Assembly: GCA_947591495.1 (NCBI GenBank)
Contig: CANQDG010000006.1
Coordinates: forward strand, 375-64,374
Direction of reading: 5' to 3'
Source: an uncultured Bacilli bacterium
Lineage (GTDB): Bacteria > Bacillota_I > Bacilli_A > ML615J-28 > CAG-313
DNA length: 64,000 nt
The notes beneath the pieces were generated by a model that was not told the DNA's origin, made no database searches, and saw only the letters and a list, made by a program, of their open reading frames with translations. This document shows, one piece after another, positions 5,436 to 33,141 of this stretch. Within the stretch, counting starts at the first letter, position 1. Each line of letters starts with the position of its first letter. Made by a program: the position numbers and the translations under genes.

Positions 5436-6146
5436 ATGGTCATTTATCTTGATCTATTAATTTTATCAACAATTGTGGTCAATTACCTTTTTATTAAAAC
5501 AATTGCCATCATTTTCCATGAAAAGTTATCAATTATTAGAGTTATCATTTCTTTAGTTATGTCAGTTTTAATGCTTTTTTTATATCTTGCTCCATATCAA
5601 TTTTATTTTATAGTGCGTTATTTTATGGGAATTATTATTGGCATGATTGCTTTTCGTAAAAGTGATTTAAAAATTAAAATCATAAAGATTGTTATTTTTT
5701 ATATTCTTAATATGATGTTTATTGGATGTCTAGTAGTCTTTAAAGTTAAAAATCTTTTACCTTTAGTTTTAACAATTTTCTTTGTTATTATCTTGTATAT
5801 CGTTCAAAGCTATCAAAATGTTTTTTCACATACGCGTTATATATATCAAGTTAAATTGGATAAGGTTACTTTAAAGGGTTATTTAGATACGGGTAATTTA
5901 GCAACTTATCAAAATAAACCAATTGTTTTTTTAAAAAATAAATATTTTAATCAACAGTTTTCTTATTTAAATAACATTTCTATCAATGGTATTTTTGGTC
6001 AAAAAATGATGGATGTATATAGTGGACCTACTTTGTATTTGAATAAGAAAACTTATGAGGTATATTATATTTTTGTTAATGAAATTAATTATGACATCAT
6101 TTTAAATAATTTAATGAAGGGGGATAAAAATGCTAAAATTAATTAA
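5436..6146 (+). CDS. spoIIGA: Pro-sigma-E processing aspartic peptidase
   Basis: MVIYLD start, several TM helices and catalytic YLDTGN. Overlaps the sigE start. ATG 5436 is preferred because of the AGGTG RBS. Confidence 0.88.
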   Translation: MVIYLDLLILSTIVVNYLFIKTIAIIFHEKLSIIRVIISLVMSVLMLFLYLAPYQFYFIVRYFMGIIIGMIAFRKSDLKIKIIKIVIFYILNMMFIGCLVVFKVKNLLPLVLTIFFVIILYIVQSYQNVFSHTRYIYQVKLDKVTLKGYLDTGNLATYQNKPIVFLKNKYFNQQFSYLNNISINGIFGQKMMDVYSGPTLYLNKKTYEVYYIFVNEINYDIILNNLMKGDKNAKIN

Positions 6147-6843
6147 GAAAATTTTCGATTTGTTATTTCTTAAAAATCAACAACCTATTTGTTATTACAT
6201 CAATAGTAATAATCTTTTGCCTCAACCTTTAGATGAGAAAGAAGAAAATCGTCTTTTACTTTTAGTAAAAGAAGGGGATATTGATGCACGAAATACCTTA
6301 ATTGAACATAACTTACGTTTGGTTATTTTCATTGCGAAAAAATTTGAATCAACCAAGATTAATATGGAAGACTTAATTAGTATAGGTTCGATGGGTTTAA
6401 TTAAAGGAATTCAAACCTTCAAGATGGAAAAAAATATTAAACTAGCAACATATGCATCACGTTGTATTGAAAATGAAATATTAATGTATTTAAGAAAAAC
6501 CCAAAAGAGCAGGCAAGAATACTCTTTAGATGAGGTTTTAAGTGTTGACTCAGAAGGTAATGAAATGATTCTATCAGATATCATTGGTTCTAATGAACCG
6601 CTTGCTTTAACGAAACTATCAGAAGAAGAGGATCTTAGAAATTTATATTATGCACTTGATAAATTAAACAAAAGAGAAAAAGAAATTATTATTATGAGAT
6701 ATGGCCTTTATGGAGTTGAACCACTTACTCAAAAAGAAGTAGCTGATAAAATGGGAATTTCACAATCATACATATCTCGACTAGAAAAACGGATAATTGA
6801 AAAGATGCGTCAAGATATCGAACAATTAGTAAAAATAGCCTAA
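6130..6843 (+). CDS. sigE: Sporulation sigma factor E (pro-form)
   Basis: N-terminal pro-sequence. Motifs LIEHNLRLV, KLATYASRCIENEILMYLR and TQKEVADKMGISQSYISRLEKRII. Confidence 0.95.
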   Translation: MLKLIKKIFDLLFLKNQQPICYYINSNNLLPQPLDEKEENRLLLLVKEGDIDARNTLIEHNLRLVIFIAKKFESTKINMEDLISIGSMGLIKGIQTFKMEKNIKLATYASRCIENEILMYLRKTQKSRQEYSLDEVLSVDSEGNEMILSDIIGSNEPLALTKLSEEEDLRNLYYALDKLNKREKEIIIMRYGLYGVEPLTQKEVADKMGISQSYISRLEKRIIEKMRQDIEQLVKIA

Positions 6844-24109: not shown

Positions 24110-25804
24110 ATGCAACATTTAAAAATAGATGGTGAGTTATTCAAACAACTTGTCATTAATGGTGCAGCCAACTTATCAATTAATTATAAAGAAGTTGATG
24201 CACTTAATGTTTTCCCAGTTCCAGATGGTGATACAGGTACAAATATGCGTATGACAATCGAAGCTGGTGCAAACGAGATTAGAACTTTTGAGGAAAAGTC
24301 GATATATGAAGTCGCAAAAAAAATATCACGTGGTATGCTTATGGGAGCAAGAGGAAATTCGGGAGTTATCCTTTCCCAATTTTTCCGGGGAATTTATAAA
24401 GGATTTAATGGCATTGAAGAAGCAACTGTTAAAGAATTTGGAAAGGCCTTTCTTAATGGAGTTGAACAAGCATATCATGCTGTTCAAAAACCAGTTGAAG
24501 GAACAATTTTAACGGTTGCGAAAGATTCTAGTAAAAAAGCTTTTCGGATAATCAAAAAGGGTACAACTTTAGAAGACTTTTTTAAAGTGCTAATTGATGA
24601 AGCTCATGCTTCACTTGGTCGTACTCCTAGTTTACTACATGTATTACAAGAAGCCGGAGTTGTTGATTCAGGTGGTGCAGGATTAGTATATATTTTTGAA
24701 GGTATGAGCAAATTCTTAAATGGCGAAATAATTAAAGCCAACGAACAAGCAGTAACTCACATTCCAATTGTTCCCCAAGGCACATTTAATGCTGATAGCG
24801 AACTTGAATATGGTTATTGTACAGAATTTATTTTACAACTTCAAAATAAAAAAGTTGATGTAAACAAATTTGATGTCAAAACGATTGTTGATTTCCTTGA
24901 AAAATTAGGCGATAGTATTGTGGCTTTAAAAGATGAAGATGTTGTCAAAATTCATGTTCATACTAAAACTCCAGGGGATGTTTTAAATCATTGCCAACAA
25001 TATGGTGAATATGTTACATTAAAAATTGAAAACATGTCAGTTCAACATAATGAAATTATGTTAAATTCAGAAACAGCTAATACACCTGTTGCCAATTGTA
25101 ATTGTCCACAATGTGTTGAAGCTCGTAAAGAAACATCTCGTAAAAAATTTGCTATCGTCGCGGTAGCATCAGGTGAAGGATTAATCGAATTATTTAAAGA
25201 AATGGGCGTTGATTATGTAGTTGAAGGCGGTCAAAGTATGAACCCTGCTGCTGAAGATTTTGTTAAAGGTTTTGATAGCCTCAATGCTGAACATATCATT
25301 GTTTTCCCTAATAATTCTAATATTGTCCTAACCGCACAACAAGCTGCTAAATATTATGACAAAGCTAATATTCATGTTGCTTCAAGTAAAACATTAGCAC
25401 AAGGATATTCAGCTTTAACTATGATTGATTTAAGCAGTGGTGATATTGATACCATTCTTGCTGAAATCGATGATGTAATTAGTAATGTTACAACTGGTCT
25501 TGTTACATATTCAACAAGAGATACCGAAATTGAAGGTGTTCACATTGAAAAAGATGATAATATCGGTATTTGTGATGGTAAAATTGTCGTATCTGAAAAG
25601 AATCGGCTTGCAGCTGTCAAAGGTATCTTAGAACATACTGATTTAACTACTAAAGAAATTATCACCATCATTTATGGTAAAGATGTATCAGATGAAGAAG
25701 TAGAAGAAATTAAAAAATTAATTACTGATGAATATCCATCACTTGAAATGGATGTCATTGAAGGAAAACAAGAAATTTATAGTTATATTTTATCAATTGA
25801 ATAA
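24110..25804 (+). CDS. fakA: Fatty acid kinase subunit A (DAK2/YloV)
   Basis: Motifs LNVFPVPDGDTGTNM, GARGNSGVILSQ, YGYCTEF and GGQSMNP. Confidence 0.93.
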   Translation: MQHLKIDGELFKQLVINGAANLSINYKEVDALNVFPVPDGDTGTNMRMTIEAGANEIRTFEEKSIYEVAKKISRGMLMGARGNSGVILSQFFRGIYKGFNGIEEATVKEFGKAFLNGVEQAYHAVQKPVEGTILTVAKDSSKKAFRIIKKGTTLEDFFKVLIDEAHASLGRTPSLLHVLQEAGVVDSGGAGLVYIFEGMSKFLNGEIIKANEQAVTHIPIVPQGTFNADSELEYGYCTEFILQLQNKKVDVNKFDVKTIVDFLEKLGDSIVALKDEDVVKIHVHTKTPGDVLNHCQQYGEYVTLKIENMSVQHNEIMLNSETANTPVANCNCPQCVEARKETSRKKFAIVAVASGEGLIELFKEMGVDYVVEGGQSMNPAAEDFVKGFDSLNAEHIIVFPNNSNIVLTAQQAAKYYDKANIHVASSKTLAQGYSALTMIDLSSGDIDTILAEIDDVISNVTTGLVTYSTRDTEIEGVHIEKDDNIGICDGKIVVSEKNRLAAVKGILEHTDLTTKEIITIIYGKDVSDEEVEEIKKLITDEYPSLEMDVIEGKQEIYSYILSIE

Positions 25805-25845: not shown

Positions 25846-27885
25846 ATGCTTAAGGAACATTTATTAGCTAATGAAGATTATATTTTGGCTCGCTACGTTA
25901 ATTTTTTTAAGAAAAAAGAAATCTTAACAGTTGCCGATCTCTTATTTGATTTTCCCCTTAAATATGAAGATTTTACGGTTAAATCAATCAAGGATGCCGA
26001 ACTTGATACGCCTACCATTTTAGAAGGAACGATTATTTCGAAAGTAACCGTTAATTATCTAAAAAGTAAACTTTCAACTGTTGTTTTCCAATTAGAAGTT
26101 GAAGGTCAAAAAATTCGATGTACAATTTTTAATCGCGTATATTTAAAAGGCAAATTAAATTATGGAACAGTTTTAAGAGTTCAAGGCAAGTTTTATCAAA
26201 ATATGAATAATTTTACCGTCAATAATTTTATTATTTGTGATGAATTAAATAAAAATATCATTCCGATTTATCGTACCAAAGATATTAATGAAACGAAGTA
26301 TTTAGAAATTATTAGCATGGTTTATCGGCGTTTTAAAGATGAAATAAAAGAAACCTTGCCCAAGGAGATTATAACCAAATATCAATTTCCATCACTTAAA
26401 GAAACAGTTAACATTCTCCATTTTTCTGATAATATGGAAGAAATTAACAAAGCTATTCAACGTGTAAAATATGAAGAATTGTTACAGTATCAATTTTCCA
26501 TGAAATACTTACATTATATGCGCCAAAACGAACATAATTGTCCAATAATTAATTATGATGAAAAAATGCTTAATAAGCTAAAAATGTCCCTTAATTATGA
26601 ACTAACATCTGATCAAGAAAAAGCAATTAATGATATTTTGAAAGATTTAAAAGCTCCTTTTGCGATGAATAGGTTACTTCAAGGTGAAGTAGGTAGTGGT
26701 AAAACAATTGTTGCTATTATGTGTATGATAGCCGTTGTATCAGGCGGATATCAAGCTGCTTTAATGTGCCCAACAGAAATTTTATCTAAACAGCATTATC
26801 AAACAATTACCGACATTTTAGCACAATTTCAAGATATTAATATTGCTATTTTAACCGGTTCAACACCGGCTAAGCAACGTAAAGAAATAATAGAAAATTT
26901 AGCAAATGGTCAAATTAATATTATTATCGGCACCCATGCCTTATTTCAAAAAGATATCGATTATGCTAAACTTGGCATTGTAATTGCGGACGAAGAACAC
27001 CGCTTTGGCGTTCGTCAACGTGTTTTAATTCGCAATAAAGGACTTGATGTTAATTATTTAAAAATGAGTGCTACACCAATTCCACGTTCACTTGCCATTT
27101 CGGCTTATGGTGATACTGATATCTCGATTATTAAAACGATGCCTAAAAATAGAAAAGCTGTTATTACTAAATATGTTGATCAAAATCATAAACGTGATGT
27201 AATTAATCATATGAGGCAAGAATTAGCAGTTGGCCATCAAATTTATGTAGTAACGCCGTTAATTGAAGAATCCGAGGCTATTGATACGGCTAATGCTACG
27301 GAAATTTATCAAAACATGGTCAAATATTTTGAAAACATTGCAACAGTTGGTCTTATTCATGGTAGACTTAAAACTGAAGAAAAAGAAGAAATTATGCAAA
27401 AGTTTTTAAATAATGAAATTCAAATTTTAGTGGCAACTAGTGTTATTGAAGTTGGAGTTAATGTTGTTAATGCTACAACAATCGTTGTCCTTGGGGCAGA
27501 ACGTTTTGGCGTTGCAACCTTACATCAATTAAGAGGAAGAGTAATGCGAAGTGATAGTATACCATATTGCTTTTTCATTGCTAATAATCCAACTGAGGCC
27601 AGTGTTGAAAGATTAGAAATGGTTGAAAAAAATACTGATGGGTTTAAACTAGCTGAATATGATTTATTACATCGTGGTCCAGGAGAATTTTTTGGTGAAA
27701 AGCAATCAGGCGCAATGAATTTTCATTATGCATCATTAAAAGATGATTCGGCCTTATTAGAACTTGCTAATAGTGATTCAGAAAATATCATCAATAATGA
27801 AGCTAATTTTACTGACCCTGACTATGATGAACTATTTAAAATTGCAAAAGCCAATTATCAAATGAAACAAAAAGAATTAGATTAA
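25846..27885 (+). CDS. recG: ATP-dependent DNA helicase RecG
   Basis: Motifs RLLQGEVGSGKT, DEEHRFG, MSATPIPR, HQLRGRV and RGPGEFFG. Confidence 0.96.
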   Translation: MLKEHLLANEDYILARYVNFFKKKEILTVADLLFDFPLKYEDFTVKSIKDAELDTPTILEGTIISKVTVNYLKSKLSTVVFQLEVEGQKIRCTIFNRVYLKGKLNYGTVLRVQGKFYQNMNNFTVNNFIICDELNKNIIPIYRTKDINETKYLEIISMVYRRFKDEIKETLPKEIITKYQFPSLKETVNILHFSDNMEEINKAIQRVKYEELLQYQFSMKYLHYMRQNEHNCPIINYDEKMLNKLKMSLNYELTSDQEKAINDILKDLKAPFAMNRLLQGEVGSGKTIVAIMCMIAVVSGGYQAALMCPTEILSKQHYQTITDILAQFQDINIAILTGSTPAKQRKEIIENLANGQINIIIGTHALFQKDIDYAKLGIVIADEEHRFGVRQRVLIRNKGLDVNYLKMSATPIPRSLAISAYGDTDISIIKTMPKNRKAVITKYVDQNHKRDVINHMRQELAVGHQIYVVTPLIEESEAIDTANATEIYQNMVKYFENIATVGLIHGRLKTEEKEEIMQKFLNNEIQILVATSVIEVGVNVVNATTIVVLGAERFGVATLHQLRGRVMRSDSIPYCFFIANNPTEASVERLEMVEKNTDGFKLAEYDLLHRGPGEFFGEKQSGAMNFHYASLKDDSALLELANSDSENIINNEANFTDPDYDELFKIAKANYQMKQKELD

Positions 27886-27897
27886 CGAGGGAAGCCA

Positions 27898-28587
27898 ATG
27901 TTAAATAAGAAAATGTTAAATGAAATATTAGAAAAATACGACATTAAAGTTCAAGAATATGATCAGTTCCTTTTAGCAATGACTCATTCTTCTTATGCTA
28001 ATGAACACAATCTAAAAAGCAATGAACGAATTGAATTTTTAGGCGATGCTGTTTTAGGATTTTTAGTTGCAAGATATATATATGATAATTTCCCTGAAAT
28101 GCCTGAGGGTAAAATGAGTAAACTTAGAGCAACGTATGTTTGTGAAAATGCTAATGCTAAATATGCTCAAGAATTAAAAATTGATAAATTGCTTTTATTA
28201 GGCCATGGTGAAGAAATCTCCGGTGGTAGAAGTAAAGAAGCCGTTATTAATGATGCTTTTGAATCATTTTTAGGAGCGCTTTATTTAACTAATGGGCTAA
28301 GCGATGTTAAAAAAGTTTTAGAAAAAGTTGTTTTTCCTCATATTAAAGCTAATGATCAAGTTGAATTTATTGACTATAAAAGTATTTTACAAGAATATGT
28401 TCAAGCAGAAACAAGATCGGCATTAACATATGTTTTAATCAAAAAAGAAGGCACATCGAATGAACCAACCTTTACTATGTCAGTTTATCTTGATGGTATA
28501 ATTTTAGGAACTGGTAAGGGACGTTCTAAGAAAGATGCATCACAAGCTGCCGCAAAAGATGCCCTTTCTAAGGCTGCTCATAAATAG
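27898..28587 (+). CDS. rnc: Ribonuclease III
   Basis: NERIEFLGDAVL signature and C-terminal dsRBD. Confidence 0.97.
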   Translation: MLNKKMLNEILEKYDIKVQEYDQFLLAMTHSSYANEHNLKSNERIEFLGDAVLGFLVARYIYDNFPEMPEGKMSKLRATYVCENANAKYAQELKIDKLLLLGHGEEISGGRSKEAVINDAFESFLGALYLTNGLSDVKKVLEKVVFPHIKANDQVEFIDYKSILQEYVQAETRSALTYVLIKKEGTSNEPTFTMSVYLDGIILGTGKGRSKKDASQAAAKDALSKAAHK

Positions 28588-28628
28588 GACTTTTTTCAAC
28601 ATAAATTAACAAAAAATGATAAAATCTC

Positions 28629-28657
28629 TTGCAAAGTCAAAAAAAATGTGCTATAAT
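28629..28657 (+). promoter_or_regulatory. Sigma-A promoter with extended -10, driving a non-coding RNA
   Basis: TTGCAA-N17-TATAAT with TG at -15/-14. Confidence 0.75.
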
Positions 28658-28662
28658 ATTTG

Positions 28663-28797
28663 TGTGCGTGGATGAATGCCCCCCAATTTTAACATCCATG
28701 CATGTTGGAAGGCTGCCCCCCTACTTTATGGCCTTCCGAATCTAGTGAATTTTGAATAAAAGTAGACTGTTTTTTTAACAGTTTACTTTTATTTTTT
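28663..28797 (+). ncRNA. Candidate small RNA with two C-rich-loop hairpins and an intrinsic terminator
   Basis: Stem 28663-28674/28693-28704 and stem 28705-28714/28730-28739. The loops share TGCCCCCCwAyTTTA. Terminator at 28755-28797. GC-rich island with no credible ORF. Confidence 0.75.
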
Positions 28798-28854
28798 AGA
28801 TTAATTTTTTAATTTTTTAGTGCATTCCAATAATGCTTTTATGCATTCTACCTT

Positions 28855-28891
28855 ATTTGTTATTGCAAATAGCAATCAAATATAGTAAAAT
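28855..28891 (+). promoter_or_regulatory. Promoter of ABC operon 1 with an imperfect palindrome over the -35
   Basis: TTGCAA(28863)-N17-TAAAAT, with inverted repeat ATTTG-tt-ATTGC-N5-GCAAT-CAAAT. Confidence 0.5.
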
Positions 28892-29001
28892 ATTTCTAGT
28901 TATATTGCAAAAGTGCGCCATTTAAATGATACTGGCAAACTACCCCTTTTTATTAGTAATTAGTAAACGGGAAATAATATCAGAAAGGAATCGTCCTTTT
29001 A

Positions 29002-31254
29002 ATGTCTAAACATGAAGAAACTTTAACGATAAATGAAAATATAGATAATAATCTCATTGAACATGAAGAAAAAGCCAGTTCTAGCTTTGCTTTAGATGGT
29101 GCTAAAAAGAAAATAAATGTTCTTTCTTTAATTTTTGAAAGAATTTTACCCATTCTTTTAATAGTAGTGTTAGGTGTTAGACTATTTAGTTATCAAACGC
29201 AAATTGGTCAATATGTTGGTCTTGCTTCAACGCCTTTTTCCCCGTTTAAAACAATTATAACTTTAATTGCAATTTGGTTACAATATACTTGTTTGTTAAT
29301 TGTGATTTTAAAAGGCTTTTTTAACTTTAAATTAATTATTAATTTAAGTAGATTTATTACAATTCCAGTTTTTATTTTAAATGCTATTATGCTACCTGCC
29401 ATAATGACTTTATTTGTTGGCGATAGTAAAGCATCCCTTTTACTAATTTGTTATATTTTAGAAATTGTAATAGGAATCATTTTAGGCATTTATAATATTG
29501 TTATTAATATTAAAGTAAAAACTAATTATAAAGAAATTTTAGCAATGTTTGGCATTTTCCTTTTAATGCTTATTGCTTCGATGCCATCATATTTTTTACA
29601 AATTGTCATTGGTGATGGTAAACGTGATATGATTGTTAAAGATTTAACGCCATATCATCGTATCTTTATTTATTTAGCAATCATTATTCCAACTTGTTTA
29701 TATTTTGCTTTGCGAAATCAAAAAGAAGAAGTTATTCGTTACTTTTTAATATATATATCAGTAGCGACAATGATTGTCTTTTTAGTTAATTTTAATTATA
29801 CTAACTTTAAAGAACCTTGGACTTGGCCTTTTCATCTTTGTAATACCGCCATGTTTATCGTTCCTTTATGTTTGATTTTTAAACTTAAACGTTTGTTCTA
29901 TTTTACTTATTTTATTAATGTCTTTGGGGCTTTAATTGCGATGTTAATGCCTAACTATGATGTTGGAACCAATATTACAAGTATGCGAATTTTTAACTTT
30001 TGGTATAATCATTGGATAGCTTTCTTTATGCCTATTCTACTAGTTGCTTTAAAACAATTTAAGCGTCCAACGATTAAACAATTCTATTGGTCAATGGTTT
30101 GGTTTTTTGGTTATTTTGTTTTAGTATTATTCTTAAATGTTTATTTTACTGCTATTGGTCATAGCGTTGATTACTTCTTTATTAACACTAATTATGTAGC
30201 TGACAAACTCGGTAATTGGGCTAATAATATCTTTAATTTATCAACTAGTTTTACAGTAAATGGTAAATTATTAGTTTTCCATCCGTTATATCAATTCTTG
30301 TTCTTCCTTGGTTATGTTCTTTTAGGACTTGCGGTATGGTTTGTTTATGCGGAATGTTTTAGAATAGCAGATGATCACTTTTTATTACATACAAAACTTA
30401 AAAAAATTAGACAAGATAAACTTGCAATGGCTTCAGTGCCTAGCAAAGTTAGGAGGGCTGAATTCATGAAGGAACAACAAACAAGAGAAGCAAAATTAGA
30501 ATTAATGCACTTCTCTAAAAAATATGCAACCTCGAAAGTTTATGCCGTAGAAGACGCTAATTTAGTTGTAAATGGCGGTGAAATCTTTGGTTTCTTAGGG
30601 CCAAATGGAGCTGGTAAATCAACGATTATTAAAAGCATCGTTGGTATTCAACCAATTACGGATGGTCATATTGAAGTATGTGGTTATGATATTAGTAAAA
30701 CGCCAGTAGAGGCAAAATATAACATTGGTTATGTTCCTGACCATTATGCTTTATATGAAAAATTAACAGGTCGTGAATATATTAATTATATTGCGGACAT
30801 TTATGAAGTTTCGCAAGAAGATCGGGAAGAACGAATTAATAAATATGTTAAATTGTTTGAACTTGAAGCCTCGATTGATAGTCAAATTAAGACTTATTCA
30901 CATGGTATGAAACAAAAAATTACCATTATGTCAGCTTTAGTTCATAATCCTAAAGTTTGGATTTTAGATGAACCATTAACTGGTCTTGATCCTAATAGTA
31001 TTTATCAAGTAAAAGAATGTATGAGGCAACATGCGGCAGCTGGTAATATTGTTTTCTTTAGTTCGCACTTAATTGATATTGTGGAAAAACTATGTGAAAG
31101 AATTGCCATTATTAAACATGGAAAAATCCAATGTGTTAAATCGGTTGAAGAAATCGAAGCATCAGGAATAACCTTAGAACAATTCTATTTAAATACCATA
31201 GGCAATAATGAGGATTCATATGATAATGCTACTGATGTACAAACAAATAACTAA
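29002..31254 (+). CDS. Fusion: multi-pass YwaF/TIGR02206-like membrane domain + ABC ATPase
   Basis: WPFHLCN and FWYNHW in the membrane part. GPNGAGKS, YSHGMKQK, LDEP and SSH in the C-terminal NBD. Confidence 0.85.
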   Translation: MSKHEETLTINENIDNNLIEHEEKASSSFALDGAKKKINVLSLIFERILPILLIVVLGVRLFSYQTQIGQYVGLASTPFSPFKTIITLIAIWLQYTCLLIVILKGFFNFKLIINLSRFITIPVFILNAIMLPAIMTLFVGDSKASLLLICYILEIVIGIILGIYNIVINIKVKTNYKEILAMFGIFLLMLIASMPSYFLQIVIGDGKRDMIVKDLTPYHRIFIYLAIIIPTCLYFALRNQKEEVIRYFLIYISVATMIVFLVNFNYTNFKEPWTWPFHLCNTAMFIVPLCLIFKLKRLFYFTYFINVFGALIAMLMPNYDVGTNITSMRIFNFWYNHWIAFFMPILLVALKQFKRPTIKQFYWSMVWFFGYFVLVLFLNVYFTAIGHSVDYFFINTNYVADKLGNWANNIFNLSTSFTVNGKLLVFHPLYQFLFFLGYVLLGLAVWFVYAECFRIADDHFLLHTKLKKIRQDKLAMASVPSKVRRAEFMKEQQTREAKLELMHFSKKYATSKVYAVEDANLVVNGGEIFGFLGPNGAGKSTIIKSIVGIQPITDGHIEVCGYDISKTPVEAKYNIGYVPDHYALYEKLTGREYINYIADIYEVSQEDREERINKYVKLFELEASIDSQIKTYSHGMKQKITIMSALVHNPKVWILDEPLTGLDPNSIYQVKECMRQHAAAGNIVFFSSHLIDIVEKLCERIAIIKHGKIQCVKSVEEIEASGITLEQFYLNTIGNNEDSYDNATDVQTNN

Positions 31255-31284
31255 CCTCCTACATTTCAAAGGGGGTGAAGAATA

Positions 31285-33141
31285 ATGCTTATTATCCTTT
31301 TCTTATTAATTGTTTTTTCTAAATGTGGTAACAAACAAATTAATCATATTTTGCCCGAAAATGTTAATAGTTCTAATAATAAAGTAAAAGTTCAAAAGCC
31401 GAAGAATAACACTTCTAAAAAGTCTACGAAAGAAGAAAATAAAAAGAAGGAAACAAAAAAGGTTAAAAAAACTACCAAGACCAATCAATTAAAAACGTTA
31501 GTTGTAATGCAATTAAAAGATAAGATTGACTTTAGTTTTGCGAAAAATAAAAAACAACTTCTCCGTAAAATCGTTTTTAGTATTTTAAAATTTACAGTTG
31601 TTTTTGTTATAGCATTTGTTATTTTATATTTATCAATTTATTTAGGTTTGTTTTTCAATAGCGATTTCCCCATTGTTATGGTAGTCGTTGTGACAATATC
31701 TTTATTGCTATCGCTTATTTCTTGTACTTATGAATTAACCACTAATTTATTTTTTGCCGAAGATAATCGCGTTTTAATTACTCTTCCGGTTAACGCTAAT
31801 AAAATTTTTATTTCCCGTATTATTGTTTTTTATATATATGAATTAAAGAAAGCATTAAGTTTCTTAATTCCGATTATTCTTTCTTGTGTTACCCTTTTGG
31901 TATATCGTGGACTTGGTAATTTATGGCTATTTTTATGGATCATTATTCCGTTATTCTTTATCTTAATGTTACCAGTATTAATTGGATCATTATTATCAAT
32001 TCTTGCAATGTATATTAGAAGGTTTTTAAAAAAAGTTCCTATTATTCAAATCATTTTATTTTTAGCTATTTTAGTCGGTGTAGTTGCTTTAGTTGTTTAT
32101 TTAATTAATTTGATACCTGATAATATAAGCCTTATTAATCAGTGGCCTACGATAAGTAAAAATATTAGAAGTTTCTTTATTATGGTTCGTAGTAAACTTA
32201 ATATTATGGCTCAACTAGTTTATATTTTAATTGGTGAATATAGTCATAAAGGACTTTATCTCATTAGTGGTATGACATTAGTTAAATTATTGGTTTTAAT
32301 CGCAATATGTGCTGTGTTGATTTTATTAGTTTATTTTATTTCACGACCAATTTATTTTGGTATGATGTCTAAGAATTTTGAAATTAATAAACGGATTGGT
32401 AATGATAAGCCTAATAAAAGGAAAAATAAATATATAACCTTTGTTAATAAAGAATTTAAAATTAATTTAAGAACCATTAGCATTTCCATTAATTATTTAA
32501 TGGTTTACATAATTGTTCCAATTATGATTTTGTTTTTAAATAAAATGTATAAGGCCATGGAAACAAGTGTGCTTGGTGATGAATTAATTTATACGTTTAA
32601 TATTTTATTAATATGTTTACCACTTCTTGCTTCAAATGGCTTAGTTGCCACTTATTACAGCCGGGAAGGACGAGCAGGTTATATTAAAAAAACTAAACCT
32701 ATTAATGCGGTTTATCCCTTATTTGTAAAAATTATCTTTAATATGATATTTTCTCTTCCATCCGTTTTTGTTACATGTTTTGTTTTTGGTTATCAAAAAG
32801 AATTTACAATTCTTAATAGTTTTATTTTAAGTATGGCGATTTTATTTTTACATTATGGTCATATGATATATAGTGCAACGCTTGATATTATGAATCCTCA
32901 AAATGAACAGTATGCAACAACAGGTGATAATATTGATAATCCTAATGAAAATAAATCGACCATCTTCGCATTTATTATTTCGGCTATTTATACGATCATA
33001 GCGTATAAATTATTATCTGAAACGATGGCTACTGGAATTGTTGTTGGTTTAATTAAAATGCTTCTAATTAGTGCGGCCTTTTTCGCATCGACGCTCTTTA
33101 TGTTTATCAAACGAATTAAAGCATTTTATTATGAAATATAG
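31285..33141 (+). CDS. Large ABC-2-like exporter permease
   Basis: More than 10 TM helices, with LITLPV, KEFK and SREG motifs. Paralogous to 54268..55932. Confidence 0.8.
   Translation: MLIILFLLIVFSKCGNKQINHILPENVNSSNNKVKVQKPKNNTSKKSTKEENKKKETKKVKKTTKTNQLKTLVVMQLKDKIDFSFAKNKKQLLRKIVFSILKFTVVFVIAFVILYLSIYLGLFFNSDFPIVMVVVVTISLLLSLISCTYELTTNLFFAEDNRVLITLPVNANKIFISRIIVFYIYELKKALSFLIPIILSCVTLLVYRGLGNLWLFLWIIIPLFFILMLPVLIGSLLSILAMYIRRFLKKVPIIQIILFLAILVGVVALVVYLINLIPDNISLINQWPTISKNIRSFFIMVRSKLNIMAQLVYILIGEYSHKGLYLISGMTLVKLLVLIAICAVLILLVYFISRPIYFGMMSKNFEINKRIGNDKPNKRKNKYITFVNKEFKINLRTISISINYLMVYIIVPIMILFLNKMYKAMETSVLGDELIYTFNILLICLPLLASNGLVATYYSREGRAGYIKKTKPINAVYPLFVKIIFNMIFSLPSVFVTCFVFGYQKEFTILNSFILSMAILFLHYGHMIYSATLDIMNPQNEQYATTGDNIDNPNENKSTIFAFIISAIYTIIAYKLLSETMATGIVVGLIKMLLISAAFFASTLFMFIKRIKAFYYEI

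Follow-up and report, generated by a model that had tools for sequence, protein, structure and literature searches.

The window, i.e. the whole 64,000-nt stretch of DNA that was analysed, belongs to a 95%-complete genome of 1.51 Mb and 29.4% G+C from an uncultured member of the Bacilli. A gene for RNase III (rnc; 27898-28587, plus strand; 229 aa, Pfam matches Ribonucleas_3_3, Ribonuclease_3 and dsrm) follows a fakA-like gene (24110-25804) and recG (25846-27885) and, as the first-pass annotation had claimed, lies directly upstream of a compact element that we describe here as a small RNA (sRNA) gene. Downstream of this element are an ABC/TMEM164 fusion gene (29002-31254) and a gene for a 618-aa protein without Pfam match (31285-33141). 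The fusion product, of 750 aa, carries a TMEM164-family membrane domain together with an ABC ATPase domain, and a full-length match to it downstream of the sRNA was seen in the window species only (10 loci of the genus compared, G006 left out).

The element opens, after an A-rich stretch, with a sigma-A-type promoter on the plus strand (28629-28657), which consists of the -35 hexamer TTGCAA (28629-28634), a 17-nt spacer and the extended -10 motif TGcTATAAT (TG at 28649-28650, TATAAT at 28652-28657). With 10 of 12 hexamer matches and the extended -10, it agrees with the near-consensus promoter that had been claimed, and transcription is predicted to start at about 28664. Minimum free energy (MFE) folding led to a first hairpin (28664-28703, plus strand) with an 11-bp stem including two G-U pairs and an 18-nt apical loop with a C6 run at 28679-28684, and a second hairpin (28705-28739, plus strand) with a 10-bp stem and a 15-nt apical loop with a C6 run at 28716-28721, both C6 runs being followed by A/U-rich bases. 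An intrinsic terminator on the same strand (28754-28794, 18-bp stem and 5-nt loop) with a U-run through 28797 completes the predicted RNA of about 133 nt. The fold thus confirmed the reported arrangement of twin hairpins with C6 loops on stems of unrelated sequence, followed by a terminator; of the stem lengths given at that time (12, 10 and 17 bp), that of hairpin 2 was right, and those of hairpin 1 and of the terminator were off by one. The segment 28660-28800 folds with an MFE of -48.4 kcal/mol compared to -22.7 +/- 3.2 kcal/mol for 200 dinucleotide shuffles (z = -8.0), none of which folded equally well. The only open reading frame of at least 30 aa (28629-28745, 38 aa) begins at the -35 hexamer itself, in line with the earlier statement that a credible ORF is absent. 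When the region between the rnc stop codon and the sRNA promoter was scanned, no terminator-like site was detected, and the terminator at 28754-28797, as modelled, probably also ends read-through transcripts from rnc.

We were interested whether the RNA belongs to a described family. At gathering scores, no family of Rfam 15 matched the sRNA in a search of the whole window, and at E <= 10 the region 28500-29050 gave chance-level matches only, namely S15-Flavobacteria, SAM-II, GP_knot1, two miRNAs and one lncRNA, all sub-threshold with E values of 0.67-7.4. The novelty suggested in the first-pass annotation, to be checked against Rfam, is in agreement with this lack of a strong family match at the locus. 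The models of 6C (RF01066) and RsaE (RF01820) found nothing at E <= 1 in the whole genome; as controls, RF01066 was matched in Corynebacterium glutamicum, yet below its cut-off, and RF01820 was matched in five of 14 genomes, Bacillus subtilis among them, and above its cut-off in one. A published description of the sRNA was not found either, which is a weak statement as the searches were not aimed at the lineage by name.

Relatives of the RNA, which is single-copy in the window genome, were found within its own genus. BLASTN led to three clear relatives, all from this genus, and a covariance model built from four sequences (R1) matched 10 of 49 genomes of the family, i.e. the window genome and nine of the ten other members of the genus; the 38 genomes of 12 other genera gave no match. 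A second model built from ten sequences (R2) recovered the RNA in 11 of 11 genomes of the genus, with no convincing match in 95 other genomes of the order. One weak match among the latter (G029, E 0.048) and matches in G022 (E 0.08 and 0.44), obtained in a more permissive R2 run on five sister-genus genomes of which the other four gave none, were discarded, as they show neither the rnc context nor C-rich hairpins. In a class-wide sample of 151 genomes, R2 matched, apart from the own genus, a single genome, which is from another family (G208, E = 5e-5); as the searches with R1 and R2 score only some of the first-look candidates, they could overlook divergent relatives. A pattern scan for twin C5 runs in the 49 family genomes gave matches in 43 of them, a reversed control being equal by construction, and no similar gene outside the genus was seen among the approximately 150 matches listed, which were judged by eye and unfolded.

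Some further C-rich elements were observed during these searches. The G208 match (G208:C1:2274744-2277820, minus strand, about 1300-1640 of the locus) comprises two sRNA-like genes in tandem, located between 23S-5S rRNA and ispF/gltX-like ORFs, each with a promoter-like site, the first with a C/U-rich loop hairpin and a plain terminator, the second with a hairpin carrying C5 and C4 runs in its loop and a terminator with C4 in the loop; Rfam matches at this locus were rRNAs only. In G004, contigs C49, C67, C88, C89 and C114 carry the same 34-nt sequence with a C5 run at either end, which in three cases occupies positions 26-60 of a short contig and may represent a repeat or one end of a mobile element. 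Two genera have in common a conserved segment of about 90 nt that contains three C5 runs (G010:C6:10992-11040 and C39:373-459; G007:C23:9362-9448; G014:C56:48856-48941).

Within the genus, rnc is the same-strand upstream neighbour of the sRNA in 11 of 11 species, and the gene downstream of the sRNA varies. Among 20 rnc-downstream regions from 11 other genera, no C-rich twin hairpin was found, and runs of C4 or longer occur in two of them, both within open frames. Directly after rnc in G020 (G020:C7:1-3660), at least three tandem units of about 100 nt were observed, in each of which a T-rich stretch is combined with a short hairpin-like segment and a run of G4-5.

All 11 sequences of the genus, when folded singly, form twin hairpins whose apical loops contain the C-run, with C6-C8 in 20 of the 22 loops and C5 in the remaining two, and the conservation reaches beyond the C-run into the A/U bases that follow. 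The sequences of stem 1 are unrelated between subgroups and the C-rich loops are constant. On the model-fitted alignment, changes on both sides were counted across species for nine of 11 pairs of hairpin 1 and for 12 of 19 pairs overall, compared to one to three when the partners were slid by one to three columns; 95.9% of the cells pair and none of 500 shuffles reached the observed values, although these counts favour the structure that was fitted and stem from related sequences, so that they are supportive and do not represent a probability. RNAalifold on a plain MAFFT alignment recovered hairpin 2 only, with four of nine pairs compensatory; hairpin 1 is misaligned by plain MAFFT due to its unrelated stem sequences. 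The conservation of the loops together with covariation of the stems, which the first-pass annotation had expected in the rnc-downstream regions of relatives, is thereby borne out: the stems vary and the C-loops stay. A -35 of the type TTGC.. and a -10 of the type TGnTATAAT are present in 11 of 11 species, and in five of them hairpin 2 is followed immediately by a U-run and acts as the terminator, with a predicted RNA of about 75 nt, whereas a separate terminator hairpin is found in the other six. From sequence and fold, the element adjoining rnc is a structured and conserved non-coding RNA gene that is probably transcribed independently. Two unpaired C-runs that are kept on changing stems are a signature of seed pairing with G-runs.

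Candidate partners were sought at the starts of the genes of the window genome, whose usual Shine-Dalgarno sequence is AGGAGG. A G-run of at least five at -20 to -3 precedes 23 of 1258 genes and a run of at least six only five, gene calls and start choices both being crude. These five include spo0A, with a G7 site and a TIGR02875 match above cut-off, and a 172-aa sigma factor with a G6 site, the best NCBIfam match of which is SigH, albeit sub-threshold. The sigma factor gene lies in the order mrnC-rlmB-[sigma]-rpmG-secE-nusG, with mini-RNase III before rlmB, and the slot between rlmB and rpmG-secE-nusG corresponds to the position of sigH in Bacillus subtilis; it is called sigH in the following. 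G5 sites were found before spoIIE (sub-threshold, near full length), sigE, spoIIAA (0.35 bit below the equivalog cut-off), spoVS (Pfam SpoVS) and a gene for a Mn-catalase-family protein.

Ranking of the 1258 start regions by their duplex energy with the two loops placed sigH first, with -22.3 kcal/mol and 15 pairs to loop 1, followed by an HTH-domain protein with a G9 site (-19.0 kcal/mol). Further down were spoVS (rank 4, -17.8 kcal/mol), spo0A (rank 10, -16.4 kcal/mol over the G7 site, which is not beyond shuffled-loop controls), spoIIAA (rank 21, -15.0 kcal/mol) and spoIIE (rank 23, -14.2 kcal/mol). In the predicted folds of the sigH and spo0A leaders, both G-runs stay unpaired. Altogether, 13 start regions formed duplexes of -16 kcal/mol or better, compared to 2-14 for ten shuffled-loop controls and seven for the reversed loops; as this is no excess, target prediction alone proves nothing.

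The first-pass annotation had pointed to G5-type ribosome-binding sites (RBSs) before sigE and before the gene at 31285. Both sites exist, at 6119-6132 (RBS and start, plus strand; sigE at 6130-6843) with a loop duplex of -13.2 kcal/mol and at 31271-31287 (RBS and start of the 618-aa gene, plus strand) with -12.9 kcal/mol. As targets both fared poorly, since neither is among the best 25 of the 1258 start regions, the G5 of sigE is kept in only two of ten species of the genus, and the 618-aa gene is predicted to sequester its G-run by pairing inside the leader. This leader (31250-31290) is an observation of its own: in a predicted fold of -11.4 kcal/mol, a CCUCCU further upstream pairs with the G5 RBS, and the leader could therefore be self-occluding. 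The genes sigH, spo0A and spoIIAA, all outside the window, are better candidate targets than these two.

If the sites of these genes are used by the RNA, their G-runs may differ between species with and without it. In a comparison of species of the genus with other genera of the family, a run of at least G6 precedes spo0A in 10/11 species of the genus compared to 1/17 genomes of other genera, and sigH in 9/11 compared to 1/20, whereas at least G5 is found for spo0A in 11/11 and 17/17 and for sigH in 11/11 and 4/20, respectively. For spoIIAA, the counts are 9/10 and 4/20 for G5 or longer, and 4/10 and 0/20 for G6 or longer. The site of sigE shows the opposite pattern, with G5 or longer being commoner outside the genus (2/10 compared to 9/17). 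The counts for spo0A leave out G021 (unclear start, no G-run before the aligned ATG), G068 (match from residue 7), G016 and G017 (internal stops) and G067 (no locus); those for sigH leave out G012 and G067 (no locus), with starts chosen by eye and ATT assumed in three species; and those for sigE leave out SigK-like second matches and G066 (internal stop). With respect to the sigH starts in G007, G010 and G005, two of the three have no canonical in-frame start downstream of the G6-7 site and ahead of the conserved N-terminus, and an ATT start is likely for these genes; in G010, an in-frame ATG abuts the G-run directly.

Genome-wide, G6 with an ATG 3-12 nt downstream occurs 10-29 times in five genomes of the genus compared to 0-16 times in five others, and the reversed control pattern 8-20 compared to 3-12 times, so the G6 background is somewhat higher in the genus, with no general shift of RBSs. 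Complementarity in the flanks beyond the G-run is, by eye, not conserved between species. The G5 site of spo0A in 17/17 genomes of sister genera that do not carry the RNA, together with the pattern of sigE, indicates that G-rich sites at sporulation genes predate the RNA; this spo0A site is found in all 17 although the usual site is AGGAGG, as surveyed in the window genome alone. The longer sites of sigH and spo0A, in part also of spoIIAA, in the genus with the C6-8-loop RNA are suggestive and not proof, as the contrast of the genus with the rest represents a single phylogenetic event seen at three loci and not independent replicates.

From the fold, the promoter, the conserved loops on varying stems and the lack of a matching Rfam family, the sRNA is best read as a new, uncatalogued family of a well-known kind of regulator, a C-rich-loop anti-Shine-Dalgarno sRNA. 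Its loops would probably block G-rich RBSs, with sigH and spo0A, master regulators of sporulation, as the most plausible targets. Of the original proposal of a trans-acting anti-Shine-Dalgarno RNA, the mode of action thus stays the best reading, while its named targets, sigE and the gene at 31285, are unsupported. In the proposed mechanism, a strong vegetative-type promoter just after rnc would drive the sRNA, and the two hairpins would hold a run of C5-8 and A/U-rich bases unpaired in each apical loop. The loops could then pair with G-runs in the RBSs of mRNAs, for which six or seven G-C pairs might suffice without Hfq, and this pairing would block the initiation of translation, after which RNase III might cut the sRNA-mRNA duplex. 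The likeliest targets would be sigH and spo0A, then the spoIIAA operon, and with these the sRNA would hold the initiation of sporulation in check. Expression, pairing and the direction of regulation are, like the role of RNase III, what we infer here, and an involvement of RNase III is suggested solely by the conserved adjacency of rnc in 11 of 11 species. For the explanation as a whole, comprising a new sRNA family, anti-Shine-Dalgarno action and targets in sporulation initiation, we see an about even chance. A more far-reaching version is possible and can only be put forward tentatively: the RNA may be a low-G+C, independently arisen counterpart of 6C that serves as a dedicated translational gate on sporulation entry in an uncultured genus of gut Bacilli with reduced genomes, an abundant vegetative sRNA that clamps the G6-7 RBSs of sigH, spo0A and the spoIIAA-sigF operon, with these sites having lengthened in step with the C6-8 loops. 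If this were true, the family-wide G5 sites at sporulation genes would point to a broader, unseen layer of C-rich riboregulators.

The same loop evidence would also be explained by a base-pairing RNA that follows another logic, i.e. one that activates by opening leaders or protecting mRNAs, binds G-rich sites other than RBSs or acts as a sponge for G-rich RNA, with a regulon unrelated to sporulation. Activation has been described for one target of RoxS (PMC5419742) and for spo0A by SpoX (PMC10267692), and the HTH-domain protein with the G9 site as well as transporters also ranked high in the duplex search. Nevertheless, the top candidates have no Shine-Dalgarno-like element other than the G-run, which should be unpaired according to the predicted folds, so that pairing should occlude rather than free it, and we regard such another logic as rather unlikely.

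A further explanation, which the first-pass annotation had also offered as a two-site protein sponge, dispenses with base pairing and sees in the twin C-rich loops a decoy that titrates an RNA-binding protein with a preference for single-stranded C-runs. The same loop motif on two unrelated stems is the typical layout of a two-site decoy, the extension of the conservation past the C-run into the A/U bases suits it, and so does the number of genome-wide duplexes, which does not rise above that of shuffled controls. The documented uses of C-rich loops in 6C and RoxS, however, are base pairing, and the G6-7 sites that this genus in particular has at sigH and spo0A also fit pairing; a protein sponge is clearly unlikely.

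It may also be considered whether hairpins and terminator are merely the 3' end of the rnc mRNA, a cis element for stability or RNase III feedback whose promoter-like site is incidental or secondary. The invariable same-strand adjacency to rnc in spite of differing downstream genes and the missing terminator between rnc and the element in the window would agree with this. The near-consensus extended -10 promoter, however, is kept in 11 of 11 species, stems of 10-12 bp are short for RNase III substrates, selection on unpaired C-runs would be left unexplained, and nothing similar was found in the 20 rnc-downstream regions of the 11 other genera; such a cis element has in our view a slim chance of being the answer. 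A small protein encoded by the locus is hardly conceivable and was rejected, as in eight of 11 species the whole core can be read in an open frame of 24-26 codons from its first bases onward but in the other three the frame closes after 4-11 codons, the frames differ among species and share only the prolines forced by the C-runs, no RBS precedes them, and the species differ by indels whose lengths are not divisible by three.

Hardly any regulatory RNAs are known from uncultured gut Firmicutes, and the anti-Shine-Dalgarno sRNA proposed here is a clean and easily modelled example with covariation support and a short, testable list of targets. If its link to sigH and spo0A is true, it would be the second control of sporulation entry by an sRNA after SpoY/SpoX of Clostridioides difficile, at a step that affects persistence and transmission of gut spore-formers, and a striking convergence with the actinobacterial 6C RNA. 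If the link is false, it would still be a new RNA family that can be added to Rfam.

Among known systems, the first-pass annotation had named RsaE/RoxS, FsrA and RNAIII as analogues; the mechanism of RsaE/RoxS indeed resembles the one proposed here, and the closest analogue in architecture, 6C, had been missed. RsaE/RoxS (RF01820) of the Bacillales is closest in mechanism among low-G+C bacteria. RoxS carries several unpaired C-rich regions, two of them in a duplicated 10-nt motif, which pair with and occlude Shine-Dalgarno regions, the duplex being cut by RNase III (PMC4409812). The present RNA likewise has multiple unpaired C-rich regions and a repeated motif, as its two loops share C5-8 followed by A/U-rich bases. 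Its motif differs from the RoxS duplication, the RF01820 model (gathering score 79 bits) fails to match, and the known RsaE/RoxS targets lie in central metabolism and redox. RsaE/RoxS expression is also under the control of nitric oxide or redox regulators such as ResDE.

Closest in the proposed biology is SpoY of C. difficile. SpoY prefers a G-rich, RBS-like motif, blocks the RBS of spo0A and lowers sporulation, and it is derived from a 5' UTR, with a start site in common with a downstream gene, and aided in binding by Hfq (PMC10267692). In contrast, a promoter and a terminator of its own belong to the present RNA, and its downstream gene varies between species. A further difference is that the 95%-complete window genome yielded no Hfq gene, which fits a chaperone-free G-C kissing interaction as described for 6C.

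In architecture, the RNA is most similar to 6C (RF01066), also a short RNA whose hairpins carry C6-type loops. For 6C, the report describes apical loops of six or more cytosines that bind a G-rich RBS (panD, AGGGGGG) without Hfq or ProQ, and an expression that goes up at sporulation in Streptomyces coelicolor (PMC6486639). At least six cytosines are found in 20 of the 22 loops from the 11 species, and a comparable chaperone-free binding of the loops to sigH (-22.3 kcal/mol) and spo0A (-16.4 kcal/mol) is a prediction only. On the other hand, the RF01066 model (gathering score 47 bits) has no match in the window, nor at E <= 10 at the locus or at E <= 1 in the genome, the hosts of 6C are high-G+C Gram-positives in contrast to a member of the Bacilli with 29.4% G+C, and the present RNA has A/U-rich loop flanks and a position after rnc that is specific to its genus. 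The resemblance of both RNAs is most simply explained by convergence.
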